Origin: an uncultured bacterium
GTDB lineage: Bacteria > Omnitrophota > Omnitrophia > Omnitrophales > Aquincolibacteriaceae
Length of the DNA stretch: 64,000 nt
Reading direction: 5' to 3'
NCBI GenBank assembly: GCA_964410905.1
Contig: CAYPIR010000001.1
Span: 21,861 to 85,860, forward strand
A model generated the notes under the pieces. The model searched no databases. It was given only the letters and a program-made list of their open reading frames with translations, and was not told the DNA's origin. The position numbers and the translations under genes are program-made. Numbering within the stretch: the stretch's first letter is position 1; the number at the start of each line of letters is the position of its first letter. Shown piece after piece: positions 1-33,632 of the stretch.

Positions 1-600
1 ATTATAAAAAGCATCATCTATCATAGAAAAACTTTTTGTTACAAATATTGTTTGCTGTAAAAAAAGAAGATCTCCGCCCAAACAAATGCCTTCCGGAAAT
101 CGAATATTGTTATCAAGAACAAGACTCCTACGATATATTGCCGTCCACCAATAAAGATTAAAATAAAATTTATCATTACCGTGTTTGGCTATAATGCTAT
201 TCAATTGAACTGTTTTGGTTTTTCCATAATAGTCCGTCTCTTTCGCGTTGCCTTTGACTATATCCGCATTTGTTTCTATCTTTTTCTCCCAAAGTTTCTC
301 ATAAAAATCCAAATCGACTTCATCATCGTTGTCCACAAAACCCAGATATTCTCCAGTTGCCAAATCTAATCCTTTGTTTCTAGCGACTGATTCTCCGCCG
401 TTTTTTTCATTACAAACCGCTTTAAGATTAGAATATTTTTTTGAATATTCTTGAATAATCTCCCAAGAATCATCCGTAGAAGCATCGTCCACCACGATTA
501 TTTCTATGTCTTTAAGCGTTTGATTACATACGCTGTCGAGACATCTACGCAAGTATAATTCTGCGTTATAAACTGGAATAATTATAGAAACCTTAGGCAC
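1..600 (-). CDS. glycosyltransferase family 2 protein (partial; N-terminal part in window, gene continues past window start)
   Basis: Minus-strand frame is open from the GTG at 598-600 down to position 1. Translation VPKVSIIIPVYNAELYLRRCLDSVCNQTLKDIEIIVVDDASTDDS...GEYLGFVDNDDEVDLDFYEKL carries GT2 signatures (IIPVYN, VDDxS, DxDD) and is paralogous to the N-terminus of the adjacent 593..2266 ORF. It is absent from the ORF track because no stop falls in the window. Confidence 0.75.
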   Translation of the reverse strand, partial: MPKVSIIIPVYNAELYLRRCLDSVCNQTLKDIEIIVVDDASTDDSWEIIQEYSKKYSNLKAVCNEKNGGESVARNKGLDLATGEYLGFVDNDDEVDLDFYEKLWEKKIETNADIVKGNAKETDYYGKTKTVQLNSIIAKHGNDKFYFNLYWWTAIYRRSLVLDNNIRFPEGICLGGDLLFLQQTIFVTKSFSMIDDAFYN

Positions 601-2266
601 TAGCTACCAACCTCTTCTTGAGAATTGAAAAAAGTTCAATTTTAGTCATCGGCTTAAAACCCTCTTTAAAACCCACAGTGGAACAAGTTCCCGCAAATAA
701 GTTTCCTTTATACTTTTTATCCAAATATTCCTTGGATTGCCAATATGTTCTAGGCAATCTAAGAGTAAATCCTGCATCTGAACAATGGCAACAATCCATA
801 ACAACAATTCGAGATTCAATGCCATGCTTGATGTGGGCGGATATGCAAAAATCTTCAACATAAAGATCCCACTGCAGGCATTCATCGAAACGTAATTTAT
901 ATTTATTTATGAGAGATGAATGAGCAATAAGACATTGACAATCAAATGTATCTACTTTTTCATCGCCTGTAATCACTTTGCCTGCCAGCCTGTTTGTTTC
1001 ACTGCCATCTCTGCATTCTTGAAATATCGTACCTTTCAATTCGTTATAAAAAAAAGTATCTATATATCCAATTTTTGCTCCAACAGGCCCCCACAAAAAT
1101 GTCTTATCAAGGTTTTCTATCTTGGGCAAAACATTTTCGAGAACTTCCCAATCTGAGTGACAGAAGACAAACCACGCGGGCTTAGAATATTCATATTTAT
1201 CTAGAAATTGATTATATCTTTCAGCGACTCCAATGTTTTTAACACTATTATCAAAAGCGTGAAACTCTATCTGTTGTTCATTTGAAATAAATCCATTTTT
1301 GCGCACTAAACGATTATACAAATCAAAATCTTGAACAACGCTAATAAAATAAATACTCTTATTTGCCATCTTACGTCTACCCACTTCGCGACAAAAATTT
1401 ATACACGCCGTCGTTGAAATTTTAAGCATCTCTGCTCGAACAAGATCTTTATAATTCAGCGAGTCATAAAAATCTAAAAGTTGGCTGAGCATAAAACTAG
1501 CCATTTCTTTCCCATGCGTATACATGTAACAAGTAGAAAACCATAAACTTAAAACAAAGGCTTTGGATTTTGTAGATATGGCCGCAGATTCAACCTCATT
1601 AAACAAGATGCGCATACCTTCAATTTTATCGTGGACACTAAAGCTGCTCCGCCTAGCAAGTAAAGCTTCACTCTCAAGCACATAATATTTAGCTTCATCG
1701 CATACTTTAACTGCGTTTGATTTAAGCGCTACCAGAAAAGCAAAAATTGGATCCTCCATATCTCGTAATAGCGGAAAAGTAATATTGGAACTTTTTAATA
1801 AATTTTTTCTATATATTGCACTAGCAAATTCCGCAGAAAAGGTATTTTTATCCACCTTTACTCTGCCATTCAAAAACATATTTTGAACTCCACTTGAAAT
1901 AAAAAAATAGATTCCCTTCACTACATCCGCCGCTGTTTCGACCGCCTTACTATGCAACTTCTCATAAAAATCCAAGTCAATAAAATCGTCTGAATCGACA
2001 AATCCGATATATTCTCCCGCCGCTGCTTCTATCCCAATATTGCGAGCGACTGCGGCGCCTCTATTTTCAGATTGTTCAATTATTTTTATCCTAGAGTCTT
2101 TAGCGGCATATTCTTTCAAAATCGCAAGCGAGCCGTCTGTCGATTTGTCATCTACGCAGATAATCTCAATATCCTTCAACGTCTGGGCGCAAACCGTATC
2201 CAAACATTTCCTGAAATACTGTTCTGGCACGTTATAAACTGGAATAATCACTGAAACTTTAGGCAT
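593..2266 (-). CDS. two-domain glycosyltransferase (N-terminal GT2 domain plus C-terminal GT-like domain)
   Basis: 557-aa ORF. N-terminus MPKVSVIIPVYN...ICVDDKSTDGS...GFVDSDD matches GT-A/GT2 motifs. A second ~300-aa C-terminal domain follows with no intervening stop. The stop TAA (593-595) overlaps the GTG start of the downstream paralog by 8 nt. Confidence 0.8.
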   Translation of the reverse strand: MPKVSVIIPVYNVPEQYFRKCLDTVCAQTLKDIEIICVDDKSTDGSLAILKEYAAKDSRIKIIEQSENRGAAVARNIGIEAAAGEYIGFVDSDDFIDLDFYEKLHSKAVETAADVVKGIYFFISSGVQNMFLNGRVKVDKNTFSAEFASAIYRKNLLKSSNITFPLLRDMEDPIFAFLVALKSNAVKVCDEAKYYVLESEALLARRSSFSVHDKIEGMRILFNEVESAAISTKSKAFVLSLWFSTCYMYTHGKEMASFMLSQLLDFYDSLNYKDLVRAEMLKISTTACINFCREVGRRKMANKSIYFISVVQDFDLYNRLVRKNGFISNEQQIEFHAFDNSVKNIGVAERYNQFLDKYEYSKPAWFVFCHSDWEVLENVLPKIENLDKTFLWGPVGAKIGYIDTFFYNELKGTIFQECRDGSETNRLAGKVITGDEKVDTFDCQCLIAHSSLINKYKLRFDECLQWDLYVEDFCISAHIKHGIESRIVVMDCCHCSDAGFTLRLPRTYWQSKEYLDKKYKGNLFAGTCSTVGFKEGFKPMTKIELFSILKKRLVASA

Positions 2267-2267
2267 T

Positions 2268-2283
2268 CCCCCCCCTTTTTTTT
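2268..2283. repeat. homopolymeric C8-T8 tract (A8-G8 on the coding strand) ending 1 nt upstream of the ATG of the 593..2266 glycosyltransferase
   Basis: Direct read: positions 2268-2275 are C8 and 2276-2283 are T8. On the minus strand this reads ...caaaaaaaaGGGGGGGGaATG, so the G8 occupies the ribosome-binding-site position. Confidence 0.9.
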
Positions 2284-2337
2284 GAATTTTCTTCTAACAT
2301 TATGAGTAAACCAATCTTTGAAACTATAGCGCCCCGC

Positions 2338-3531
2338 TTAATCACCAATTAATCCAAGTGAAAATAACGGTTTTTTCTCTGTTGTATTAAAAGCATAAGA
2401 GTCAGCCAATATTATTTTTCTTCCTGTTTTCACGCCTTTAAACTGACTTCGCCCCTTACCCTTTCCTCCGATTTCAAAAACTGTATCCATATCCGTCAAA
2501 ATGTAATCTGGGGTCTTTTTCCCAGTGGTCGATTTTAAATAATTGATTTTTTTGCCGAAAATTTTGCAACATTGCGCAAAAAAATCCTCTCTCAAGCCGC
2601 CCAAAGCCAAGTCAAAACCATTAAACAATAACCGATACGGCAAACTCAACAAAACTTTAGGCTCTTTTAAAACGTTTGTTCCCGTAGGGAATATCACCTG
2701 AATGACAAACGACTGCTCCAAAAGCAATACATATTGTTCAGCCTTATACTTTGTAATTCCTAAATTTTTCGATATGCTCGAATAATTAATTCCGTCCACA
2801 GCCGATAAGGCAGCAAATTTAACTAGTTTGCTTATCGTATTTAACTCTTCCATAGTTATATTTCTGTTAACTCGCGGAATATCTTTGTAAAGAATGGCGT
2901 TCAAAATGTTATCAAGCAGCGGAATAATGTCCGGTTCGTCTAACGCAAAAGGCATTAATCCGCCTTTTATGTAATCGTAAAAATATTCTCCATACCGCAG
3001 TAACGAAACAGGTAATTTTTTACCCATAAAATCTTCTAAACTGAGCGGCTCAATTACTGCGTCTGTTTTAAATTCAATATATTCACGCAAAGAAAACGGA
3101 TACAGCGGCTTTAATATTAGGCGGCGCGACATATCGTTTTTATATTTCCCCATAGACAGCGCCGTAGAACTTGTAAAGAACACTTTTAAATCTAACAATT
3201 CATAAACACTTTGTATCTCTTTATCAAAATTCGCATACGCATGAACTTCGTCCAGCAAGAAAACTCTTATACCCAGTTTCTCTTTCAAATCCTTTAAGGT
3301 CTCAAACATTTTTCCTTCAAAGGATTCCATCGATATGTAAAAAGAATTTTCAAGCTTTAAAGCAAGTTGTTTTAAAGTTGTAGTTTTTCCCACGCCGCGT
3401 GGTCCAACTATGCCAACAAAGTGCTTACCTTTATCAGACAACAATTCCGCAAAAAGCCTTCTGCTTCTTTTGAATTGCTTAGCACTTTCTTTTGACAGCC
3501 TATCCAATTCTACGAGTTTGCTAATTTCCAT
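2338..3531 (-). CDS. AAA+ ATPase, DUF4143-type (AAA_14 + DUF4143 architecture)
   Basis: Walker A GIVGPRGVGKTT and Walker B VFLLDEVH. The overall layout matches the widespread COG1373-like predicted ATPases of unknown function. Confidence 0.75.
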   Translation of the reverse strand: MEISKLVELDRLSKESAKQFKRSRRLFAELLSDKGKHFVGIVGPRGVGKTTTLKQLALKLENSFYISMESFEGKMFETLKDLKEKLGIRVFLLDEVHAYANFDKEIQSVYELLDLKVFFTSSTALSMGKYKNDMSRRLILKPLYPFSLREYIEFKTDAVIEPLSLEDFMGKKLPVSLLRYGEYFYDYIKGGLMPFALDEPDIIPLLDNILNAILYKDIPRVNRNITMEELNTISKLVKFAALSAVDGINYSSISKNLGITKYKAEQYVLLLEQSFVIQVIFPTGTNVLKEPKVLLSLPYRLLFNGFDLALGGLREDFFAQCCKIFGKKINYLKSTTGKKTPDYILTDMDTVFEIGGKGKGRSQFKGVKTGRKIILADSYAFNTTEKKPLFSLGLIGD

Positions 3532-3544
3532 ATTTCAGCCCTCC

Positions 3545-3619
3545 AATAATGTTATTTTGTCCAATCATTAAACAAAATATATACTATATTGTCAAGTAAT
3601 TAAACAAAATAACATTATT
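3545..3619. promoter_or_regulatory. 16-bp perfect inverted repeat (AATAATGTTATTTTGT ... ACAAAATAACATTATT) enclosing two 13-nt direct repeats ATTAAACAAAATA
   Basis: Arms lie at 3545-3560 and 3604-3619. Direct repeats lie at 3567-3579 and 3599-3611. The element sits between the stop of the PqqD-like gene and the start of the ATPase gene on the minus strand. It is a candidate terminator, operator or both. Confidence 0.4.
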
Positions 3620-3636
3620 CTGGCACATAAACTCAT

Positions 3637-4131
3637 CTATTGAGCCCCGTCCTTTCCCATTTCTTCTTCTTTTGCTTTTTTTGCCTTAAGCTTTTCGGCG
3701 TCCGTTTCGAGCGCGCTTTTTTCTGGCGTCCAGCCCGTGTCATCTTTAACTTCATGGATTGGGTCGGCAAGCAGCAATTCTTGCGCGTCGTTATATTCTG
3801 TAACAAACAATGCGAAATTTTCCGCTGTCGCAATTTTGCTATTAATTGCAGCCCCGCCCTTTCCATCTCCGCCGGCAACGATAAGCCCTTTTTCAACCAA
3901 CGCGTCAACAAATAATTTAAAATTTTCATCAATATTAGCAGGGACTCCCGCTATAGACTTTAGAGATGCCAAAACCGCTTCGCTAGATGCTCCTCCGATA
4001 ATGCGCGCAAATACTTCCGTTCCAAGCGGATTCATTCCGTAATAAATGCCCGTTTCTGAATTAATGACGATTGCGATTCCATCCGCAATGTCGGAAAACA
4101 TTTTCGATTCGTTTAAAACATAATTTGCCAT
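3637..4131 (-). CDS. PqqD-family (RRE-like) peptide-chaperone-like protein with long C-terminal low-complexity tail
   Basis: The N-terminal ~90 aa (…FSDIADGIAIVINSETGIYYGMNPLGTEVFARI…) resembles the PqqD/RiPP-recognition-element fold. The C-terminal ~70 aa are acidic and Lys-rich (…AEKLKAKKAKEEEMGKDGAQ). The ATG lies 1 nt from the upstream kinase stop, so the two are translationally coupled. Confidence 0.65.
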   Translation of the reverse strand: MANYVLNESKMFSDIADGIAIVINSETGIYYGMNPLGTEVFARIIGGASSEAVLASLKSIAGVPANIDENFKLFVDALVEKGLIVAGGDGKGGAAINSKIATAENFALFVTEYNDAQELLLADPIHEVKDDTGWTPEKSALETDAEKLKAKKAKEEEMGKDGAQ

Positions 4132-4132
4132 T

Positions 4133-5221
4133 TTATTTTTTCTCCTTGTTTAGTTTGTTGCAAAACTCTCGCAAGCATTCGACATTGGCATAAATATCGG
4201 GTGAGAGATTTATTTGATAAAAGTTGAAGTCCCTAACAAAATTCATTAATTTGCGAACTGTTGCAATATCAAGCTTGTCGCCCATCTGATTGATAGTTGA
4301 ATGAATAAGCTGCGTAATCGCTCTGCCTTTTTCGCACGACGCAATTGAGGGAGCTTTGTCAGATACAATTTCAGGGAAAATGCACGCTTTGATCGCGTAG
4401 TTTTCTCTGAACTGTTTGTGATAATTAGAAATGCTAAATACGTATTTATCACGCCTCGCGTTGTTGGAAACAAACTTGCCGTCAAACTCATAATAAAGTT
4501 CGTTCCACATTCGCGGGCTCAAAGTAACAATGGAATATATTGGCGAACTGAGCAATTTGCCATTCGTTTGTTTTTCTAAGATAAGATAATCATCTGAAAC
4601 ATATTCAAAGCCTTGCATCATAGACAATACCGCCAAAGTAGATTTGCCGCGTTGTCCGCGCGCGCATACCAAAACTCCGCTGCCGTTTAATCCTACCACC
4701 GCCGCATGAACAAGGTTTGCCGTCGGCGATTTGATGACCTTGTTGAAAAGCTGCACAAAAATATGCCCTTGTTTTATGAACTCTTCCGGGTCAAGATTTT
4801 CAGCGGCATAATAGTATGTATTGTTTTTTGCATCGTAAGCATTAACAAAACCTGTCGTTGGAAAAACAGAAATGTTAGAGCCGTCATCGCCTTTAATGTC
4901 GACATCAATCCAATCTTGATGTAAGACTAACTTTTCAATTCTCGCGCGCATTTTGCCGTGCGAATCAAGCAAGGATTCTGACAACTGTTTTATTTTTGTT
5001 TCTTTCCAAATAACAAGCGTCGCGTCATAGCAATCCGAGTTTGATTTCAATGTAAAGGCGAGTTGTTTTTCAACAAGAGGCGTCCACTCTTTATGAAAAC
5101 ATTCAATTCGCAATGTCTTAGAACCTAATCGCACAAACCGTATCCATTCGCGCGTGTTTGTTTGGCGAATATTGCTATCAAGTTTTTGGACATATGCCGG
5201 CGCATCGCCTTTTATGAACAT
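4133..5221 (-). CDS. HPr kinase/phosphorylase-related serine-kinase-like protein (HprK-related kinase)
   Basis: The P-loop GLNGSGVLVCARGQRGKST is followed by YVSDDYLIL, matching the C-terminal catalytic domain pattern of HprK (GxSGxGKSE ... DD). Its start overlaps the stop of the upstream nucleotidyltransferase gene by 10 nt. Confidence 0.65.
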   Translation of the reverse strand: MFIKGDAPAYVQKLDSNIRQTNTREWIRFVRLGSKTLRIECFHKEWTPLVEKQLAFTLKSNSDCYDATLVIWKETKIKQLSESLLDSHGKMRARIEKLVLHQDWIDVDIKGDDGSNISVFPTTGFVNAYDAKNNTYYYAAENLDPEEFIKQGHIFVQLFNKVIKSPTANLVHAAVVGLNGSGVLVCARGQRGKSTLAVLSMMQGFEYVSDDYLILEKQTNGKLLSSPIYSIVTLSPRMWNELYYEFDGKFVSNNARRDKYVFSISNYHKQFRENYAIKACIFPEIVSDKAPSIASCEKGRAITQLIHSTINQMGDKLDIATVRKLMNFVRDFNFYQINLSPDIYANVECLREFCNKLNKEKK

Positions 5222-6216
5222 TTTCGCTGCTCCCGCATTGAATTAAATCCCTCAGCCATTTTTAAAAACAGCGCTATTAACTGATCGCTTTTGCCAATTG
5301 TTTTAAGAAATCTGTGATAAGGCTTATCTTTTAACCAATTTTTCATTACTTCAAAATTTTTAATCGCATTTTTCAGCTTTAATTTTTTGCAGCGCCATTT
5401 CACATCATAGACATAAAATCTGTAAAAAACCAAACGGTTCCTATAATTTGCTGCGGATTTTTTTAGCTTTTTATTGTGGAGAAATAAATCGGGCAAGAGA
5501 TTGGGCGATATGCGATTTAAAAGTTTTGCGGCAAAAAACAATGTCGCTTCGCAAGATGCCTTTTGGGCATTTTGAAAAACTCTTTTCCAATCAAAATTAG
5601 GATTAGTTTCGAGCAAATATTTAATGTCAAAAAGAGCAAACAAAACTCCGCCTAGGGTTGTTTTGTAATGCAAATTTCGGCTTATGTTGGTCAGCGCGAC
5701 AAATACAAAATCCTCAGGGGTAGGCACAAACGCTCTCGCGCCGAAAACATCTTGCAAAGTTGCCCGCGAAAAAAAGTCTCTCATTAAACTTTTGTCATAA
5801 TCAGGGACATCAAAATCAATAAAACGATGTATATCAACCGTTCCTTCGTCCGTTCCTTTTGGATGTAAGTCCGCCGAGTAGGCATTAAATTCCGCGACCG
5901 TATAGCCGAGATTTTTTGCTATCTCAAGCGACTTTCTATAATCTTCTTCGCGTACCAAAATATCTATGTCGCCCATTGCTCTGGGTAATTCCGGTCTTAT
6001 ATATTTCATCGCGCCGCCTTTTAAAATCATTGGAATAATTCCGTTTTGGTTAAGGGCGCGGACGACTTTGCCAAAATGCGCGATAAGTTTGAGGTTGGCA
6101 AAACGATGAAATTCCAGAACTCCTTTTAAACGCGGATAAATTAGGTCGGGCACGTCAAAATTAGGACGGGATTTTATTGTATACGAGAGAAGTAAAATTT
6201 TTCTGCCATCCGCCAA
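5212..6216 (-). CDS. nucleotidyltransferase family protein (uncharacterised NTase, PF14907-like); true start probably upstream at ATG 6428-6430 in a repeat-dependent frame
   Basis: Minimal-nucleotidyltransferase motif GDIDILV is preceded by LKGGAM. The track start is a TTG with no Shine-Dalgarno sequence. The same reading frame stays open for a further 56 codons upstream, running through the (CAAG)n tract to 6431 (protein-like sequence DTNRLSFLKEDKVFWAEEAFYQEIV...). Confidence 0.7.
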   Translation of the reverse strand: MADGRKILLLSYTIKSRPNFDVPDLIYPRLKGVLEFHRFANLKLIAHFGKVVRALNQNGIIPMILKGGAMKYIRPELPRAMGDIDILVREEDYRKSLEIAKNLGYTVAEFNAYSADLHPKGTDEGTVDIHRFIDFDVPDYDKSLMRDFFSRATLQDVFGARAFVPTPEDFVFVALTNISRNLHYKTTLGGVLFALFDIKYLLETNPNFDWKRVFQNAQKASCEATLFFAAKLLNRISPNLLPDLFLHNKKLKKSAANYRNRLVFYRFYVYDVKWRCKKLKLKNAIKNFEVMKNWLKDKPYHRFLKTIGKSDQLIALFLKMAEGFNSMREQRKCS

Positions 6217-6376
6217 TTCGATATCAAAATCGATGAGAAAATCATCTAGTGTTTTTTGCGTGGATTCTTCGCGGAAAGCAAGATCGATAAGTTTTTGGTC
6301 TTTTTGCGAAACAATTTCTTGATAAAACGCTTCTTCCGCCCAAAAGACTTTGTCTTCTTTTAAAAAACTTAATCGA

Positions 6377-6430
<54 letters not shown>

Positions 6431-6491
6431 TCTTAAACTCGCGGTTTTGCATTTTTTAAAAATTAGAAAAATAATTTTCTGTCCATTTTTT

Positions 6492-7520
6492 CTATTTCGT
6501 TAAGAGTTCGTTAACTTTATTCATTACCGCGAACGCGTCGGCGACATAAAGCACATCGGCTTTACCTTGCGCCCAGCCGCAATTGGCGTCTGTATTAACG
6601 GCGCGACGTTCGTTAATGAAACGCCAACCGACAACATGCGGTTCCTCACCGTGACAACAAGTCGCAAGCCCTTTTGGATGTCTGGGCGTAGACCCCGTTT
6701 GCCCGACTTGATTCATGTGCCCAATAAAAGAAAGAACCGCCTCGCCTTCAGCTCCAAGGTCGACAAGCGATTTACTGCTTCCAAGAGACGCTTTTGTATT
6801 TTTGAGAAAATCTAAAATATGTTTTTCGGCATCTTTCGAATGCGTCTGGCCATCGGCTTGTTTTTTTGTCCATCCCGCACCCGCAACAAATAAAAGTTCC
6901 GCGTCAGGACGAATTGTCTGCGCGTCTGCTGGCGGAGCCTGAACACCAACCGATTTGGTTCGTTTGTCTGCGTCTGTTAAAGCAACTGTTACTGCCTCAA
7001 CCGCCGCGGAACCAGCCGTGCCATTAAATGCTTGAAACACTCCCGAATCAACCGCCAAAATCCAAGGACGCGCCGCGCGAGAAAGTGTCGCAACCATTCG
7101 CTGACGGTAATACCAACGTTGGATATTGAGTTTTCCGTCCTGAATAGAAATTCCGCTTATATGCGTATCAATTGCTCCGTTTAATCGAAACGAAAGTCCC
7201 GGCAACGCACGCGCAAAACGGCTTGTTGAAGGCGCGATTATGATTGCCGCGCCTGATGTCTTTGCTATTGCTTCAAGAGCCTTAACATCTGAGGCATAGC
7301 GTGAATCCGCGAAATCGGCGCCCGAAACGCCATAAATCTTAGTGGCTCCCGCTCCGGCAATTTGGTCGGCCGCAGATTTAACGTCAGCGCCAATCAAGCC
7401 TATAGAAAGTTCCGCGTTTAAATCTTTTGTAATTTGCCGCGCTCCCGATAAAACCTCAAGCGCGATTTTGGGAAGGCTTCCATTTGAATCCGTATGTGCT
7501 AAATAAAGAATTTTTTCCAT
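6492..7520 (-). CDS. etfA: electron transfer flavoprotein subunit alpha
   Basis: 342 aa. C-terminal FAD-binding region carries VGQTG ... AVNTDAN ... ADxxxV motifs typical of EtfA. It lies adjacent to etfB. Confidence 0.85.
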   Translation of the reverse strand: MEKILYLAHTDSNGSLPKIALEVLSGARQITKDLNAELSIGLIGADVKSAADQIAGAGATKIYGVSGADFADSRYASDVKALEAIAKTSGAAIIIAPSTSRFARALPGLSFRLNGAIDTHISGISIQDGKLNIQRWYYRQRMVATLSRAARPWILAVDSGVFQAFNGTAGSAAVEAVTVALTDADKRTKSVGVQAPPADAQTIRPDAELLFVAGAGWTKKQADGQTHSKDAEKHILDFLKNTKASLGSSKSLVDLGAEGEAVLSFIGHMNQVGQTGSTPRHPKGLATCCHGEEPHVVGWRFINERRAVNTDANCGWAQGKADVLYVADAFAVMNKVNELLTK

Positions 7521-7532
7521 TTTCTCTCTCCC

Positions 7533-8342
7533 TTAACCTTTAATCCATGTAACGATTTCTTTAGCGATTTCGTCAACGGACGTGTCTTTTACAATTCGAG
7601 TTTGGCGCTGCTGCTTTGGAAGCTCGACAGACGCAAATTGTATTTTGTCCGTCTTAAGTCCGGCGGGCGCGGCCTTCTGCAGCGCGGGCATAATTCCGCG
7701 CATATTCGCCATTCCCACTTGAGGGTTATTCGGCGGCTCAGGTAAATTTCCCGTCGCCCAGCCAATCGCCGCGGGCGCGCCGACGCAAGAGGAAACCTGA
7801 TATTTTCCACCCTCGATTCGTTCAAGAATTTTAAAAGAACCGTCTGCTTGAACTGTAAGTTCATCAACAGACAAAAACACATCGGTAATTCCAAGATGCT
7901 CCGCGATAAGTTGAATTGTTGTTCCTGAATCGCGGGAAGCCGAAGAACAGCCGCCGAACACAAGTGTTTTTGTTTTATCAAATCCCGGCAGTTTAGAAAT
8001 AGTGCCGGCAAGCGCAGCCGCGACTTCGGAGGAGTCCGTAAATCCGCTGGCAGAACCGTCAATCGCCACAAGTTCAAACGGAACTTTTTGCGCGATAGTC
8101 ATCATCAACTGCTGAAGTTTTGCTTTAGGTCCAAGGCTCAAAAGAGTAACCTTGCTACCCGGAAATAGCTTCGCTAAGTTTGCCGCTTCAAAAAGCGAAT
8201 GCCCCGCCCAAGGGTCAAGAACCGAAGGCAGCATCATTTCATTTCTAAGCGCATGACCTGTCGACCCTTGAATTGGCTCAAGTGTTTGAAGTGGATCCGG
8301 AACCAAACTTCCGCAAACTATAATATTAAAAACATTACTCAT
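7533..8342 (-). CDS. etfB: electron transfer flavoprotein subunit beta
   Basis: 269 aa. N-terminus MSNVFNIIVCGSLVPDP matches EtfB-family N-termini. Operon position supports the call. Confidence 0.85.
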   Translation of the reverse strand: MSNVFNIIVCGSLVPDPLQTLEPIQGSTGHALRNEMMLPSVLDPWAGHSLFEAANLAKLFPGSKVTLLSLGPKAKLQQLMMTIAQKVPFELVAIDGSASGFTDSSEVAAALAGTISKLPGFDKTKTLVFGGCSSASRDSGTTIQLIAEHLGITDVFLSVDELTVQADGSFKILERIEGGKYQVSSCVGAPAAIGWATGNLPEPPNNPQVGMANMRGIMPALQKAAPAGLKTDKIQFASVELPKQQRQTRIVKDTSVDEIAKEIVTWIKG

Positions 8343-10488: not shown

Positions 10489-12582
10489 CTATAACGGATA
10501 ATCCAACGCTTCAGGGATCATAACATTTGCAACAGACTCCGCGGCACGATCTTTTGAGAAACGAAGTCCGACAAGACTCGCTTCAGTCTTCGCTCGAAGT
10601 TCCGCGAATGCTTTGAGTTCAGCGTCTTTAGTAATATCTGTTCCAGCCGGCAAATATCCATAAATAAGATCAGCGCAAATTTTGCCGACCTCGCCAACGG
10701 CACGAGCCGCCTGAACACCGCTCAAATCTGAATAGAAATTAACAAAACCCTCAAGCCCTTCAGCAAGAGTAGGATTCTCCGGGCCCTTTGCTTCAAGTTC
10801 CAAAGTGTCCAAAATTAACTGACGCGTTCCAAGCAGCCACGCGATTGCATCAGTCAGCGGGAACATAACGCCCTGACGCGCTCCGCCATAAAGAGTCTTT
10901 CCGTTAGCGTCTTTATGCGACTGAAGATATTCAAATGACAATAGCCAAAGATCTATCGCGCTGGCAAGAGCAATCGCTCCGGTTTCCGGTTTGCTGCCGC
11001 CTATTTTTCGCAGGTCATTCGCCCAGCCTTTAAACTGCGCTAGGAAAATATCATTCGTCATCGTGCGGCTTAATTGCAAACGCTGCACGCATTCAGGACC
11101 TTCGTATGTTGCCTCAAGTTGCGCGTCCGACCACTTTTGAGTTAAAAACCCCGGGCAGTCTTCCGTGATGCCGTAACCGCCTACAAGACTGACGGCTTCG
11201 CGCATCATTGTTGCGCCGTATCCTGTATTCCAGAGTTTCCCAGCCGGACAATACACGTCAGCCAAGGACTCCCAGACAAGATACTGCGTCAAAAGATCGT
11301 TTTTGAGTTCTTCAAAACGCTTGGCATCGCGTTCGGCTTCTGGTTTTGCCAAAAGTTCGATATATTCCAACGCCTTTTTACGCGGTTCAGCAAGCGCTTT
11401 CGTTTGCGCTCTCACGCCTTTAATCCCTTGTTTTTCAAAGAGCTCATCTTTTTGGCGTTCCAAAACGTCAAACATGTCAAAAATTCTCGAACCTTCAAAG
11501 CCGAGCGCGGCACCCGCTTCGCCTGTCGCCCAAACGTCGACAAGTCTATGCGTTGGATCTTCTTTTTGCTGAATGCCCAAGTCGTAGCGGGATGTCCCTT
11601 GTGTTACAGACGCTCCTCCGCGATAACGGGTCCGTTGATAACGGATAACAGGCTCAATCGCCGAAAGAAGTTTCGCGGTAGTCATAATGCCAACCGTTAC
11701 GCGAGTTCTGCGGAACACGGCTTCGATAACTTCGCTATTGTTAAAATTAGGAATAATTACGCCGTCTTTAATTGTGTATCCGCCGATAATGCGGCTTGCA
11801 GGAACACGCAAATTAAAAATCGGGTCGTGTGTGCTGGAAAGCTGGTGAACAAGTTTCAAAGTCGGCGCGCCGCGGTCATAAACTCCCTGGTCGCCTTCTT
11901 CTAAAATAATCATACAACTTGATTTAATACGCGGATCATCGGTGTCTACGGACGCTGTAACAAAATTCGCGTATCCCATATTGGTGATAAAACGGCCGCG
12001 TTTTTCAACCTGCAAAATAGGCTCCTTGCCTTCTTCCCATTCAGCAACGCGAAGTTTTCCCGACAACATACCCGCGTCCACGCCGACATATGGGAGAGGT
12101 TCCGTTAGAGCAAACGAACCGCGATATTTGGGAGCTTCGTTGTTAATTGGAACGCAGCCGCCCTTATATTGTAATTTTTGTTCTTTCGTGCCTTTTTCAT
12201 GAATAGGCTCAAGAGCAAGATTGTTCGCGAGACTTGCCGTCGCCGCGCCCGCGTCAACCCAGCAAAGTTCAAAAGCAATCATGGCAAGAACAAGATTTTT
12301 GGGACCCTCTATGTATCCGCCTTCTTCCGGTTCCATAAACGCGGCTGTAATCCCCGCTTTATCAAACTCTCTTAACATTTCCTGTTTTTCTTTTGTCCAT
12401 TCATGCGTGGCGCGCTGTTTATCAGCAACCATACGGGCAACAACGCTGCGGGCAACCGCGCGAGTTGATTGAATTACCATTTGAAGATCATAACGGTCAG
12501 AAAAACGCCACATAATTTGGCGAACCGCATCGGTAGGAAGAGTGCTCAGCAACGCTCTTTTTTCAGAATTAGTCGTGGTCAT
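10489..12582 (-). CDS. large acyl-CoA dehydrogenase family protein
   Basis: 697-aa ORF with the acyl-CoA dehydrogenase middle and C-terminal domain pattern. Called by family and by position downstream of the ETF genes. Confidence 0.75.
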   Translation of the reverse strand: MTTTNSEKRALLSTLPTDAVRQIMWRFSDRYDLQMVIQSTRAVARSVVARMVADKQRATHEWTKEKQEMLREFDKAGITAAFMEPEEGGYIEGPKNLVLAMIAFELCWVDAGAATASLANNLALEPIHEKGTKEQKLQYKGGCVPINNEAPKYRGSFALTEPLPYVGVDAGMLSGKLRVAEWEEGKEPILQVEKRGRFITNMGYANFVTASVDTDDPRIKSSCMIILEEGDQGVYDRGAPTLKLVHQLSSTHDPIFNLRVPASRIIGGYTIKDGVIIPNFNNSEVIEAVFRRTRVTVGIMTTAKLLSAIEPVIRYQRTRYRGGASVTQGTSRYDLGIQQKEDPTHRLVDVWATGEAGAALGFEGSRIFDMFDVLERQKDELFEKQGIKGVRAQTKALAEPRKKALEYIELLAKPEAERDAKRFEELKNDLLTQYLVWESLADVYCPAGKLWNTGYGATMMREAVSLVGGYGITEDCPGFLTQKWSDAQLEATYEGPECVQRLQLSRTMTNDIFLAQFKGWANDLRKIGGSKPETGAIALASAIDLWLLSFEYLQSHKDANGKTLYGGARQGVMFPLTDAIAWLLGTRQLILDTLELEAKGPENPTLAEGLEGFVNFYSDLSGVQAARAVGEVGKICADLIYGYLPAGTDITKDAELKAFAELRAKTEASLVGLRFSKDRAAESVANVMIPEALDYPL

Positions 12583-12618
12583 TAAATTGTTCCTTTCTTA
12601 ATTGGTGTTACAGACAAA

Positions 12619-12651
12619 AAAATCCCCGCAAAACAAAAGGGATTTGGATAG
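12619..12651 (-). terminator. candidate intrinsic terminator (7-bp stem AAATCCC/GGGATTT plus T7 on the minus strand) downstream of the R-M island
   Basis: The minus strand reads ccAAATCCCttttgttttgcgGGGATTTttttgtctg. The weak, AT-rich stem limits confidence. Confidence 0.3.
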
Positions 12652-12729
12652 GAAAGCCGATCCAAGAGTTAAAAAGTAGAGTGATATTATTCAAAAACAA
12701 CTCTAGTTGCAAGAAAAAATAAGGGCAGT

Positions 12730-13470
12730 TTAAACGTTGTCTATGATTAACTTCAAAATCTCTAAAACATCGTGCTTATGCGCAACCGACAACATTCCAA
12801 ACAGCCTAAAAATTTCAAGAAACACGTCCGCATTGCTGTCATCAATTACAAATTCAGCCTCTTCTTTTTGTTCTGCCGTTCTGCCAATTAGCACAGTGTC
12901 TGTCTTCAGTTTTGTTATTGGGAAACACAAATAAAGCATAGGCATAATCCCAACTGCATACTGCTTTTCTCTTGTAATTATTTCAACGACAATATCAAAA
13001 TCTCCAAATTTATGAACTAGCAATGGATATTCGACACTAGATGTTTCAAAAGTAATTTCATTTAATAGAATTTTAACCGGATTTGTCCGCTTTATTTTGA
13101 GTTCGTTTTCCAAAAGATTAAAATCCTCACCAGCATTAACAAAATTTATCAATTTATTTATTTTTTGCTTATCGATTAAACCGTTCTTCGCTAAGTGAAA
13201 AACATACTCTGAAAGTTCATAAAGAGATTTCCGTTTACTATTCGCGCCAGTAAAAGTTAAGTCTTGCAAAGATGTTGTTTTCTTACCTTTTTCGATATCA
13301 GACAAAATTGCGTCATAACCAATTTGCCATTCGACATACATATCCTGAGAAAATGGCGTTTGACGAGTTGCGACAGAAAAACCATATTCATAAATCATTT
13401 TCCGTCTTTTAATTCTGACTTTGCCATTGGTTGTAACTAGTGGGATTTTAATTTTGTATTGGTAACTCAT
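12730..13470 (-). CDS. hypothetical protein, candidate type II restriction endonuclease partnering the adjacent methyltransferase
   Basis: 246-aa ORF in an AT-rich island. Its start overlaps the stop of the upstream methyltransferase by 4 nt. No recognisable family; a possible D...E..K-like segment (GDFDIVVEIITREK) is present. Confidence 0.45.
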   Translation of the reverse strand: MSYQYKIKIPLVTTNGKVRIKRRKMIYEYGFSVATRQTPFSQDMYVEWQIGYDAILSDIEKGKKTTSLQDLTFTGANSKRKSLYELSEYVFHLAKNGLIDKQKINKLINFVNAGEDFNLLENELKIKRTNPVKILLNEITFETSSVEYPLLVHKFGDFDIVVEIITREKQYAVGIMPMLYLCFPITKLKTDTVLIGRTAEQKEEAEFVIDDSNADVFLEIFRLFGMLSVAHKHDVLEILKLIIDNV

Positions 13471-14630
13471 AGCAAAATTGTCCGCTTAAATAGCTTGTCA
13501 AAATAAATGTTAACTCTTTGTTTTGATAGTTGAATTTGGGCATCATCTATTTGGCTTGTTCCAAATATATCCGGATGCTTCGCACGCGATAAAATTTCAA
13601 AATCTTTTCTATAGACCTTAAATGCCTCATTATTAATAGGCACGTTTAGATTCCCCATATAGTAAGGCAGTCTTTCAGCATAGTCTTTAAAAATATCAAC
13701 ATATTGATAATATTCAAGTTTGCTAGACTTAACCTGAACAGCATTTGGAATATCTTCCTTAATGAATGTTCTGCTTCGTTTTAGTGCATTGATGTCTCGC
13801 ATAGTATAAAAAAGAAAGCCCTTCCAATTCTGCCTTTTATATCTACTAGGATACTTATCCAAATAGTTATCAATATAATCAAATTGATTTAATGAAAATG
13901 TCAAACCTTCCAGAGTTTTAAAACTCCAAGCCTCAACATCCTTAAAGGTCATTCCATGTCCATCTTTTTTATAAATAGCAATAACTATTGGGAAACCAGT
14001 CATTTTGGAGACTTCAGAAAATTCTTGGCTTGAAAACACCAAAGTATCAAGCAATTTATAATTATTTAAAAATGGTTTGAGGCTATTAAAATTAGTTTTT
14101 TTGATTAAATAGGATAGCGGATGCAAAACCGCAACAAATTCGGGCTTTAATTTATTATAAGCAAGCAAAGACGACAAACCAATGTCTCGCGATTCAATGT
14201 CTTTATCAACAGGATACCTAGCCTCAGTTTTTATATCGCATTTAACATGCGAAGTTTTATCGTTATAAGGCGGATTCCCGACCAAAATAACTTTTGCATA
14301 ATCGCTGATACCATAATTAATTCTATTAACTCGATGCAAAGCATTTTGTTTTAAAAAAGTAATTTCTGGGAAATTAGATTTTGCAGTTTCTAGCGCCATT
14401 AAATCAATATCTGCACCAACACATCTAACTTGGAGAGGCAAATCAACATTAAAAAAAGCTCCATATCCACAGCTTGGTTCTAATAAAACATCACAGCTTT
14501 CAAAAGCATTATATTTGTTTAGCAACTCGTACGTTTTAGAAACAAGTTTTTGCGGTGTATAGAAACTGCCTAAATTTGTCTTATCACTATAACTTAAATG
14601 CCTCGCTGTTTTATCTAATAAATTTTGCAT
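13467..14630 (-). CDS. gamma-class N6-adenine DNA methyltransferase (TaqI/Eco57I-like)
   Basis: Motif X GSFYTPQKLV, motif I LEPSCGYGAFF and motif IV VGNPPY occur in the gamma-class order. The C-terminal ~250 aa are a candidate target-recognition domain. Confidence 0.8.
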   Translation of the reverse strand: MQNLLDKTARHLSYSDKTNLGSFYTPQKLVSKTYELLNKYNAFESCDVLLEPSCGYGAFFNVDLPLQVRCVGADIDLMALETAKSNFPEITFLKQNALHRVNRINYGISDYAKVILVGNPPYNDKTSHVKCDIKTEARYPVDKDIESRDIGLSSLLAYNKLKPEFVAVLHPLSYLIKKTNFNSLKPFLNNYKLLDTLVFSSQEFSEVSKMTGFPIVIAIYKKDGHGMTFKDVEAWSFKTLEGLTFSLNQFDYIDNYLDKYPSRYKRQNWKGFLFYTMRDINALKRSRTFIKEDIPNAVQVKSSKLEYYQYVDIFKDYAERLPYYMGNLNVPINNEAFKVYRKDFEILSRAKHPDIFGTSQIDDAQIQLSKQRVNIYFDKLFKRTILL

Positions 14631-14704
14631 ATTAATTTTCTCAATATTATTGTTTTAAATAATATTAATATTATATATTTGCCAACACAGTTGTCTAGCC
14701 TTTA

Positions 14705-16723
14705 TTACTTTCCCCAGCGGAACATCAACGCGCCAAGCGGCGGAATACTTATGTTCATTGAAAACGGTCTATATTGCCAAGCCGTCGACTCCGCGTGAAC
14801 GCCGCCCAAATTCCCAATTCCGCAGCCTCCATATTCATTTCCTTGGGAATTTAAAATCTCTTTGTAATATCCCCAGCGCGGAACGCCCACTCGATAATTA
14901 CGCAAAACCACGGGTGTCATATTAAATACAAAAATAAGCACGGATTTTCTGTCCCGAGACCAACGCAAGAAACTTATAACCGAATGGGCGCTATCCGAGT
15001 GGTCTATCCACTCAAAAAGCTCCGGCGAATCATCAGTTTCATAAAGCGCGGGATTCGCGCGGTAAATACGATTCAAATCTCTGACAAATTCACTGATAAG
15101 ATGATGCGCGGGCGACTTTGTCAGGTGCCAATCAAGCGACTGCGCGTAATTCCATTCATTTCTCTGGGCGAAATCCGTCCCCATAAACAAAAGTTTTTTA
15201 CCGGGAAAAGCAAACATATAACTTAAAAAAAGCCTGCTTCCAGAAAACTTCCGCCAATCGCTGCCGGGCATTTTTTCAAGCAAAGACCGTTTGCCATAAA
15301 CAAGTTCATCATGCGAAATGGGCAAAATATAGTTCTCGGAAAACGCGTAGCCCGCTGAAAACGGGAAAACGTCTTGATGCCATTTACGATAAATCGGGTC
15401 TTTTGAAAAGTATTCAATTGTGTCGTGCATCCAGCCCATATTCCATTTCATGCTGAATCCAAGACCGCCAAGATGAACGGGCTTTGACACCGCGGGCCAC
15501 GCCGTGGACTCTTCGGCAATAGTCAAAACTCCAGGATATTTTGCGTGAACAACTCGGTTTAGACGCTTCAGAAACTCTATCGCTTCAAGATTTTCTCTGC
15601 CGCCGTATTTGTTCGCTTCCCATTCGCCGTCTTTCCTCGAATAATTTAGATAAAGCATGCAGGACACCGCGTCCACTCTGAGTCCGTCGACGTGATATTT
15701 GTCCAGCCAGAACAGCGCGTTAGAAATAAGAAAATTATCAACCTCGCGGCGCCCAAAATCGAACACCAAAGTTCCCCATTCTTTTTGCTCGGCGCGCCGC
15801 CAATTCGGAGACGAATAAATCGGCGTTCCGTCAAAATCAAAAAGCCCGTGTCCATCGCGGGGAAAATGCGCCGGCACCCAATCCAAAATCACGCCTATTC
15901 CGTGCTGATGGCAATAATCCACAAAATACATCAAATCTTCTGGCGAACCATAACGCTTCGTAGGCGCGTAATAATTGATGACTTGATAACCCCAAGATTC
16001 ATCCAACGGATACTCCATAACAGGCATCAGTTCTATATGCGTGTAGCCCATGTATTGAACATATTCAACTAGTTGGCGCGCGAGATCTCGATAGTTCAAA
16101 AATCCCCAGCCGTTTTCGCCGTCTCGTTTCCACGACCCCAAATGGACCTCATAAATCGATATTGGCGAAGTTTGCGTTTTTTTATTGTTTCGTTCTTCAA
16201 GCCACTCGCGATCGTTCCATTTATATTTGGCGAGAGAAGAAACTACGGCAGCGGTTTTTGGACGCAGTTCGGTTTCAAACGCGTAAGGATCCGTTTTAAA
16301 CAAGACGGCATCGGTTTCTTTAGAACGAATCGCAAACTTATAAAGCGCGCCATCCCGAAGTTTTGGAATAAAAATAACCCACATGCCAGAAAATGGAATT
16401 TGCGACATCAAATGTTTCTCTGCGTTCCATTTATTAAAATCGCCGACAACTGAAACCGATTTCGCGTTCGGCGCCCATACGGTAAAAAGCACGCCCTTTT
16501 CGCCTTTTATCACGACAGGGTGCGCGCCCATTTTTTCATAACTTCTATAGTGACTTCCTTCATTCAAAAGATAGAGGTCATAATCGCTGATAGAAACGGG
16601 AAATGACGCGGACTTTTTATTTTTTATTCTTGCCGCGCGCAAAGGTTTAGAAACCGTAATGCTTTTTCGTTTCGCTGATTTTATTTTTCTTGTTTTTATT
16701 TTTTTTCGGTTTTTATAATTCAT
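14705..16723 (-). CDS. glgB: 1,4-alpha-glucan branching enzyme
   Basis: 672 aa with the GH13 branching-enzyme pattern (…YLLNEGSHYRSYEKMGAHP…, catalytic core). A ~40-aa Lys/Arg-rich N-terminal extension is present. Confidence 0.9.
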   Translation of the reverse strand: MNYKNRKKIKTRKIKSAKRKSITVSKPLRAARIKNKKSASFPVSISDYDLYLLNEGSHYRSYEKMGAHPVVIKGEKGVLFTVWAPNAKSVSVVGDFNKWNAEKHLMSQIPFSGMWVIFIPKLRDGALYKFAIRSKETDAVLFKTDPYAFETELRPKTAAVVSSLAKYKWNDREWLEERNNKKTQTSPISIYEVHLGSWKRDGENGWGFLNYRDLARQLVEYVQYMGYTHIELMPVMEYPLDESWGYQVINYYAPTKRYGSPEDLMYFVDYCHQHGIGVILDWVPAHFPRDGHGLFDFDGTPIYSSPNWRRAEQKEWGTLVFDFGRREVDNFLISNALFWLDKYHVDGLRVDAVSCMLYLNYSRKDGEWEANKYGGRENLEAIEFLKRLNRVVHAKYPGVLTIAEESTAWPAVSKPVHLGGLGFSMKWNMGWMHDTIEYFSKDPIYRKWHQDVFPFSAGYAFSENYILPISHDELVYGKRSLLEKMPGSDWRKFSGSRLFLSYMFAFPGKKLLFMGTDFAQRNEWNYAQSLDWHLTKSPAHHLISEFVRDLNRIYRANPALYETDDSPELFEWIDHSDSAHSVISFLRWSRDRKSVLIFVFNMTPVVLRNYRVGVPRWGYYKEILNSQGNEYGGCGIGNLGGVHAESTAWQYRPFSMNISIPPLGALMFRWGK

Positions 16724-26871: not shown

Positions 26872-26948
26872 TGGTCGGGGCGATTGGATTCGAACCAACG
26901 GCCTCTCGGTCCCGAACCGAGCGCACTACCAAGCTGTGCTACGCCCCG
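26872..26948 (-). tRNA. tRNA-Pro (anticodon CGG), CCA encoded
   Basis: Cloverleaf folded by hand: acceptor stem CGGGGCG/CGCCCCG, D stem GCAC/GTGC, anticodon stem CTCGG/CCGAG, anticodon loop TTCGGGA, T loop TTCGAAT, discriminator A followed by CCA. Confidence 0.9.
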
Positions 26949-33048: not shown

Positions 33049-33135
33049 AATTGCCGATGATTATATGAGAATCATCTCATCGCTTCAAGAATTAAAGACG
33101 TTTTTTTAACGTGGGATTTTTTATGAGATAAAAAA

Positions 33136-33533
33136 GGAAGGTCTTCTCTATAAGCCGGGTTCTGTTCTTTTATCTCGCGATAAAAGAGACGACCATCTAT
33201 CTAGGACAGTTGTTGCCAATTGTCTCGGTCGGCTTACCCAATAAAGTTAAGAGATTGCTCTCTTTGTAGAAGTGGACGCTTCCGCCAATTTGGCTCTTTA
33301 TCCTGTTTAGCCTTTCTTCACGTAGAGATTGCCGCGTTTCACCCTCTAAGACTTTCGTCCTAAAGACTCGTCTCTGTGGCTCTAATCCGTTCTGAAAATA
33401 TCTTGCGATAAATCCAGAAGATGGGCGTTACCCATTACGATGTCCTATGAAGCCCGGACTTTCCTCCCACAACGGTTTGATGAGACGTTTCTCACCCTTT
33501 CGCTTGTGCGCGATCGTCCGAAAAGACCTTCCC
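33136..33533 (-). ncRNA. rnpB: RNase P RNA (bacterial type A)
   Basis: The minus strand contains GGGAGGAAAGTCCGGGCTTCATAGGACA (P4 5' strand) and ACAGAACCCGGCTTA (P4 3' strand). P1 pairing GGAAGGTCTT/AAGACCTTCC is followed by a T6 run. Confidence 0.85.
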
Positions 33534-33558: not shown

Positions 33559-33632
33559 TGGACCCACCTGGACTCGAACCAGGAACCAAAGGATTATGAG
33601 TCCTCTGCTCTAACCGATTGAGCTATGGGTCC
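33559..33632 (-). tRNA. tRNA-Met (anticodon CAT; lysidine-type tRNA-Ile2 not excluded), no encoded CCA
   Basis: Hand-folded: acceptor stem GGACCCA/TGGGTCC, D stem GCTC/GAGC, anticodon loop CTCATAA, T loop TTCGAGT. Confidence 0.85.

Follow-up and report, generated by a model that had tools for sequence, protein, structure and literature searches.

The question raised by this locus is what kind of system is formed by a methyltransferase gene and an adjoining open reading frame (ORF) of 246 amino acids (aa), which together make up an AT-rich island in the chromosome of an uncultured bacterium of the phylum Omnitrophota. The window analyzed here is the whole stretch of 64,000 nucleotides (nt) from contig CAYPIR010000001.1 (assembly GCA_964410905.1), and the two genes, hereafter M and R, are read from its minus strand at 14630-13467 (M, 387 aa) and 13470-12730 (R). 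A first-pass annotation of this DNA had described an AT-rich island with a methyltransferase and a coupled 246-aa ORF, and all of these are present. It had further considered the ORF to be without a recognizable family and probably a novel or divergent restriction endonuclease; on this point we arrived at a different answer. We consider that M and R very probably constitute a minimal Type II restriction-modification (R-M) cassette of the PabI family in an Omnitrophota chromosome, with a specificity and a chemistry predicted from characterized homologues.

The family of R was apparent from both sequence and structure. R matched the Pfam family PF09522 (RE_R_Pab1) across the entire profile (positions 1-119 of 119), with an E-value of 6.8e-43 and a score of 146 bits (gathering score, 25). 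Residues 3-244 of R matched the crystal-structure sequence of R.CcoLI (PDB 7CFA) in full length (E 2.1e-45), and R also matched R.PabI (PDB 2DVY; E 6.8e-13). The structure of R predicted by AlphaFold, with a predicted local distance difference test score (pLDDT) of 92.2, superposed on 7CFA_A with template modeling (TM) scores of 0.85/0.89 and a root-mean-square deviation of 2.3 Å, and on R.PabI chains with TM scores of 0.72/0.81. All 15 of the PDB fold matches with E <= 0.001 were chains of R.CcoLI or R.PabI, and no match of R to a fold other than HALFPIPE fell below E 0.09. Searches of Pfam, NCBIfam, PADLOC and folds gave no match of R to the PD-(D/E)XK, HNH, GIY-YIG or PLD nucleases. Moreover, NCBI records already label homologues of R as 'R.Pab1 family restriction endonuclease'.

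The residues that carry the chemistry of this family are retained in R. In the characterized proteins, the glycosylase residues are a tyrosine, a histidine and an aspartate (Y68, H211 and D214 in R.PabI; Y52, H222 and D225 in R.CcoLI), and the mesophile-type apparatus for apurinic/apyrimidinic (AP) lyase activity comprises Lys71, Asp53 and Asn67 of R.CcoLI, located on an inserted beta-sheet (PMC7806768). In the alignment, Y52, D53, N77, K81, H231 and D234 of R correspond to Y52, D53, N67, K71, H222 and D225 of R.CcoLI. Five of them (Y52, D53, K81, H231 and D234) were invariant in 121 homologues, and N77 was found in 120 of the 121. The model of R has strands at 53-55, 72-74 and 80-83, in line with an inserted beta-sheet. 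In terms of DNA recognition, nine of the ten base-contact residues of R.CcoLI are kept in R (K17, R19, E47, Q49, I50, Q170, M178, Y180 and F224). The characterized members of the family are metal-independent adenine DNA glycosylases acting on GTAC (PMC10273834, PMC7806768), and in the mesophilic members the abasic site is then cut by beta-elimination through a lysine held by the inserted beta-sheet (PMC7806768, PMC10273834). By homology, R would be a restriction glycosylase of the R.PabI (HALFPIPE) family with AP-lyase activity, and its predicted target is the unmethylated adenine of GTAC. The 246-aa ORF, which had been taken for a probably novel or divergent restriction endonuclease, can thus be retained as the restriction component, but by homology it would act as an adenine glycosylase and AP lyase.

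The systems closest to this pair are R.CcoLI/M.CcoLI of Campylobacter coli and the related pair on conjugative plasmids of Campylobacter, in which M likewise lies upstream of R in the same order and orientation. R is 36% identical to 7CFA (Foldseek) and shares with it the fold, the catalytic Tyr/His/Asp, the Lys-Asp-Asn set of the AP lyase and the inserted beta-sheet. On the other hand, the host in the present case is an environmental member of the Omnitrophota and not of the Campylobacterales; R carries, beside its active site, an insertion that exceeds that of R.CcoLI by 10 residues; R has Met176 where R.CcoLI has Gln164; and M and R overlap, whereas CcoLI-type pairs have a short spacer. The founding restriction glycosylase, R.PabI with M.PabI of Pyrococcus abyssi (2DVY, 3WAZ), has the HALFPIPE fold and the catalytic residues that have equivalents in R, and presumably shares the GTAC target and adenine excision. 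However, R is only 22-24% identical to R.PabI, which has no lysine-positioning inserted beta-sheet and shows only weak AP-lyase activity (PMC7806768). In the archaeal PabI systems, M and R are arranged tail-to-tail, and the methyltransferase may not be orthologous (PMC4615327). By its published description, R.HpyAXII/M.HpyAXII of Helicobacter pylori belongs to the same bacterial lineage and has the GTAC target; R.HpyAXII limits DNA uptake, and the H. pylori genome avoids GTAC (PMC10273834). The present pair differs from it in host and chromosomal locus.

The first-pass annotation had recognized M as a gamma-class N6-adenine methyltransferase, and our results agree with this. M contains FYTP at residues 23-26, LEPSCGYGAFF at 50-60 and NPPY at 119-122, and FYTP, EPSCGYGAF (51-59) and NPPY were conserved in 63 homologues. 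M thus has the motif order X, I, IV followed by a C-terminal target-recognition domain, which is the layout of the gamma-class N6-adenine enzymes (PMC4615327). The PADLOC model MTase_II PDLC03275 matched M with E 7e-81, while the Pfam family N6_Mtase remained below threshold (16.4 bits), NCBIfam gave no match for either M or R, and a PDB sequence search with M returned nothing useful. The solved folds nearest to the predicted structure of M (pLDDT 91.8) were M.BseCI (E 2e-11), CamA and BsaXI. With the gamma-class enzymes M.TaqI, M.BseCI and CamA, M shares the fold of the catalytic domain, the order X-I-IV and the NPPY motif; it is only 12-16% identical to the M.BseCI/CamA type and superposes with a TM score of about 0.4, because its C-terminal target-recognition domain is without a close solved counterpart. 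A much nearer relative is the methylase paired with R.Pab1 on the C. jejuni plasmid NZ_CP092023.1, which is annotated as an Eco57I-type methylase domain protein and is 42% identical over residues 11-349 of the 387 (E 3e-84). As judged from these motifs and relatives, M is a gamma-class N6-adenine DNA methyltransferase of the bacterial M.PabI-homologue lineage (M.HpyAXII/M.CcoLI type), and its predicted product, following the homologues, is GTm6AC, in which m6A denotes N6-methyladenine.

The association of M with R was examined in 82 loci encoding an R homologue, namely 80 metagenomic contigs and two loci from a look-up. Such homologues were not found to occur broadly without methyltransferases, which the first-pass annotation had named as an outcome that would refute its reading: an M homologue lay directly upstream on the same strand in 71 of the 71 loci having at least 286 bp of upstream DNA, and the 11 of 82 loci without one each had at most 251 bp of upstream sequence. 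M followed by R on the same strand is the gene order of the bacterial lineage (PMC4615327). R is 43% identical (BLASTP) to the R encoded on NZ_CP092023.1, a value close to that of the M pair (42%), and we therefore consider that the two genes diverged together.

The same linkage was seen in other settings. On the C. jejuni plasmid NZ_CP092023.1 (8050-11444; L169), the M-R pair lies two genes away from a gene for a VapC toxin, and the pair is present on 14 conjugative Campylobacter plasmids, this one and 13 others. No R homologue was found in 50,697 phage records. The closest relative of M (62% identity) is part of a single chain of 632 aa, P0122, in which M is followed without a break by an R.PabI-type domain. 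This fusion was found in two independent assemblies (6001-7899 of both L167 and L168), and it sits within a same-strand row of methionine-biosynthesis genes. No natural M-R fusion is described for the PabI family in the papers cited here.

The predicted specificity agrees with the composition of the surrounding DNA. GTAC occurs 22 times in the window, against 65.5 occurrences expected from trinucleotide frequencies and about 232 expected from base composition, and its observed/expected ratio (O/E) of 0.34 is the lowest of the 256 tetramers. Among 77 background loci from diverse bacteria, 1.3% had a GTAC O/E as low as that of the window, and the pooled value was 0.83. The loci carrying an R homologue had a pooled O/E of 0.47 (Mann-Whitney p = 1e-9 versus background), and six related Omnitrophota loci, which are without the cassette at the positions examined, had a pooled O/E of 0.90. 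We consider this good indirect evidence that the M-R pair targets GTAC and has exerted pressure in this lineage. In the whole window, GGCC and GATC are almost as depleted as GTAC, and ACGT and CATG are at about half of expectation; this pattern points to several further restriction systems with 4-bp sites that the host possesses or encounters.

In terms of layout, the island is compact. The GC content is about 0.31-0.34 across about 12600-14700, compared with 0.45-0.49 in the flanking genes; for the island as refined here (12716-14704, not assigned to a strand), it is 0.321, compared with 0.421 in the remainder of the window. None of 581 same-size windows had a GC content as low as that of the island. 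The GC content at third codon positions is 0.26 in M and 0.30 in R, compared with 0.38-0.47 in five neighboring genes. The refined cassette comprises a promoter spacer, M and R, and contains no further gene, integrase or repeat boundary; M and R fill it, and its only non-coding DNA is the spacer of 74 nt, very rich in AT, between the stop of glgB and the start of M. It had been proposed that the island interrupts metabolic genes. Instead, it sits between two intact genes, both on the minus strand: glgB (16723-14705, with its stop at 14705) and a gene for an acyl-CoA dehydrogenase of 697 aa (12582-10489), which is separated from R by a spacer of 147 nt and is followed by ETF-QO and two electron transfer flavoprotein (ETF) subunit genes.

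As read from the sequence, the stop codon of M (TGA) and the start codon of R (ATG) overlap as ATGA at 13467-13470 on the minus strand, and translation of R is probably coupled to that of M through this overlap. A ribosome-binding site of its own is not obvious for R. Relatives have a short M-R spacer in place of the overlap, 10 nt in one case (L084), and one has the in-frame fusion described above. In the 74-nt spacer, the sigma-70-like sequence TAGACA-16-TATAAT (14670-14697, minus strand) matches 11 of 12 consensus positions and is the best promoter-like site within 12400-14900. Judged only from its position and the quality of its match, it is probably the cassette's own promoter, with read-through transcription from glgB as a possible alternative. 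The organization of a Type II R-M system controlled by a C protein was also considered and rejected: the small helix-turn-helix controller gene is not in the cassette, and there is no third minus-strand ORF of at least 50 aa between glgB and the acyl-CoA dehydrogenase gene. The terminator scan detected no intrinsic terminator downstream of R.

The right boundary of the cassette could be placed by comparison with relatives. Every named sequence among the nearest homologues of the acyl-CoA dehydrogenase (76-82% identity) comes from Candidatus Omnitrophota, and the closest relatives of glgB agree with this assignment. In three relatives (L170, L172 and L173) whose acyl-CoA dehydrogenase is 82-84% identical, the downstream ETF-QO/ETF row is kept, whereas upstream of the acyl-CoA dehydrogenase gene each has a different gene and none carries the cassette. 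Positions 12583-12724 of the window align with the upstream region of this gene in the three cassette-free relatives; the similarity resumes about 6-20 nt past the stop of R and runs to the start of the acyl-CoA dehydrogenase gene. Therefore, the right end of the cassette lies at about 12716-12729. The left boundary was not placed, because the neighbors of glgB differ in every relative; the closest relative of glgB (L002, 72% identity) is not syntenic downstream, where it has an ORF of 775 aa unrelated to the acyl-CoA dehydrogenase.

The hairpin with a T-run, which had been regarded as the end of the island, is present. It has an 8-bp stem (12645-12638 paired with 12627-12620) followed by UUUUGU, and it is weak: its energy of -7.7 kcal/mol (z = 0.19) is no better than that of shuffled sequence, and it was not called by the terminator scan. 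By the alignment with relatives, however, it belongs to the host intergenic region on the minus strand at 12583-12724, that is, to the leader of the acyl-CoA dehydrogenase gene and not to the island. The upstream region of this gene is conserved in the Omnitrophota relatives, and the conserved part includes a CTTGC..(N17-18)..TGAATAAGATA block and a small hairpin, whose loop has 12 extra bases in the window compared with L170, L172 and L173. This conserved region may be a promoter and leader element of the acyl-CoA dehydrogenase/ETF gene row.

In terms of origin, the cassette was probably acquired horizontally. Its GC content is below that of the flanks in 35 of 36 loci of the family, by 0.08 on average. 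The flanks of the cassette show no convincing direct or inverted repeats, and no integrase or transposase gene lies in or beside it, which fits the bare two-gene insertions reported for the PabI family in C. coli. Assemblies of three sequencing runs (SRR11845625, SRR11845623 and SRR27197510) all have this cassette next to this acyl-CoA dehydrogenase gene. A contig from a second sample (L083, run SRR27197510) agrees with the window throughout 1807 bp save for four substitutions, which fall within a 43-bp part of R (13104, 13122, 13136 and 13146). Each is a transition that changes the encoded residue (N109D, N112S, F117L and E123K). Strain variants under selection, a patch of recombined DNA or a mixed assembly may account for them.

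The following mechanism can be proposed, in which expression is deduced from the gene layout and the chemistry from the homologues R.PabI, R.HpyAXII and R.CcoLI. Transcription would begin at the promoter in the 74-nt spacer after glgB, and R would be translated by coupling to M. M would convert GTAC to GTm6AC on host DNA. R would bind DNA as a homodimer through its half-pipe beta-sheet, unwind GTAC and flip out the G and the A. When the site is unmethylated, R would excise the adenine, with no metal ion needed. Lys81, kept in place by Asp53 on an inserted beta-sheet of the mesophile type, would then cut the abasic site by beta-elimination. Action on both strands would produce double-strand breaks with ends that are hard to religate, and incoming unmethylated DNA would be destroyed.

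Several points speak against parts of this proposal. The homologues behind the predicted specificity and chemistry are only 36-43% identical, and R genes of the PabI family are often disrupted (PMC4615327), so that an intact R ORF is no proof of expression. The predicted thymine contact of R.CcoLI, Gln164, is replaced in R by Met176 (12943-12945). GGCC (58 observed, 150 expected; 0.39) and GATC (83 observed, 195 expected; 0.42) are nearly as depleted in the window as GTAC; the tetramer avoidance therefore reflects several pressures, and it could predate the cassette. The promoter is a consensus match in an AT-rich spacer, in a region where the number of such sites is not above that of shuffled sequence. 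Finally, no precise empty site was found, and the upstream gene order differs in every relative examined.

One alternative is that R is silent or functionally decayed and that in practice only M acts, as an orphan-like epigenetic mark. It is known that R of this family is often disrupted while M stays (PMC4615327); in the second sample, the four nonsynonymous changes are clustered in R, and the surrounding 1760 bp or so has none; and the lack of an obvious ribosome-binding site for R would also fit. However, R is full length, with every catalytic residue and nine of ten base contacts intact, and the four variant positions (109-123) are outside the catalytic and base-contact residues. In addition, the depletion of GTAC here, and not in related Omnitrophota loci, indicates restriction pressure, past or present. 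Accordingly, we regard a silent R as unlikely.

The replacement of Gln by Met concerns the specificity. At position 176, Met was found in 25 of the 121 closest homologues, and Gln in the other 96 as well as in R.PabI and R.CcoLI. The 25 sequences with Met are found mainly among the proteins most closely related to R. It could be supposed from this that the pair recognizes something other than plain GTAC, through an extended or altered site. We consider this very unlikely, since no tetramer in the window is more depleted than GTAC and the eight Met176-type loci are also GTAC-poor (12 observed, 51.5 expected), the remaining base contacts are all conserved, and all three characterized members cut GTAC (PMC10273834). 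By our own reasoning, a palindromic site from which adenine is excised also requires a T opposite. The broader idea that the Met-type sub-clade reads its site differently, by an altered or extended site or by another tolerance to modified thymine, seems to us improbable in equal measure. This sub-clade shows very tight M-R coupling, with the natural single-chain fusion in one relative. If the idea were true, the Met-type would provide the first example of a variant specificity in restriction enzymes that excise bases.

That R is a novel or highly divergent conventional endonuclease hydrolyzing phosphodiester bonds deserves almost no credence: nothing beyond its position next to a methyltransferase favors it, whereas R is a full-length member of the R.PabI family with the HALFPIPE fold, no other significant structural match and the conserved glycosylase and AP-lyase residues of relatives that are metal-independent glycosylases (PMC10273834).

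Apart from the cassette, the window showed a second stretch of lower GC content (0.35-0.40) at 1-6000, which contains a family-2 glycosyltransferase, an AAA_14/DUF4143 ATPase, an ORF without a Pfam match and an NTP_transf_5 nucleotidyltransferase; this stretch, too, may have been acquired. A bacterial class A RNase P RNA (33135-33529; 183 bits) lies next to a tRNA (33559-33632), and a second tRNA lies at 26875-26948. Nearly all long ORFs of the window are on the minus strand, and the GC skew is negative throughout.

The preferred reading, a PabI-family R-M cassette, also bears on the distribution of the family. The reviews cited here describe the PabI family as confined to some thermophiles and to Campylobacter and Helicobacter (PMC10273834, PMC4615327). 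We found R homologues in 371 protein clusters and in at least 517 confirmed metagenomic stretches, with named matches in Planctomycetes, Fibrobacterota, Spirochaetes, Rickettsiales, bacteria of the candidate phyla radiation and Clostridia. Our literature search found no broad metagenomic survey of this family. The mechanism itself is not new, and Pfam and NCBI annotation already names such proteins. Among restriction enzymes, only the restriction glycosylases are known to attack the base and not the backbone. Across the homologues found here, the PabI family is widespread in uncultivated mesophiles, always with its methyltransferase and with avoidance of GTAC. These findings usefully correct the published distribution of the family and provide a source of diverse enzymes.

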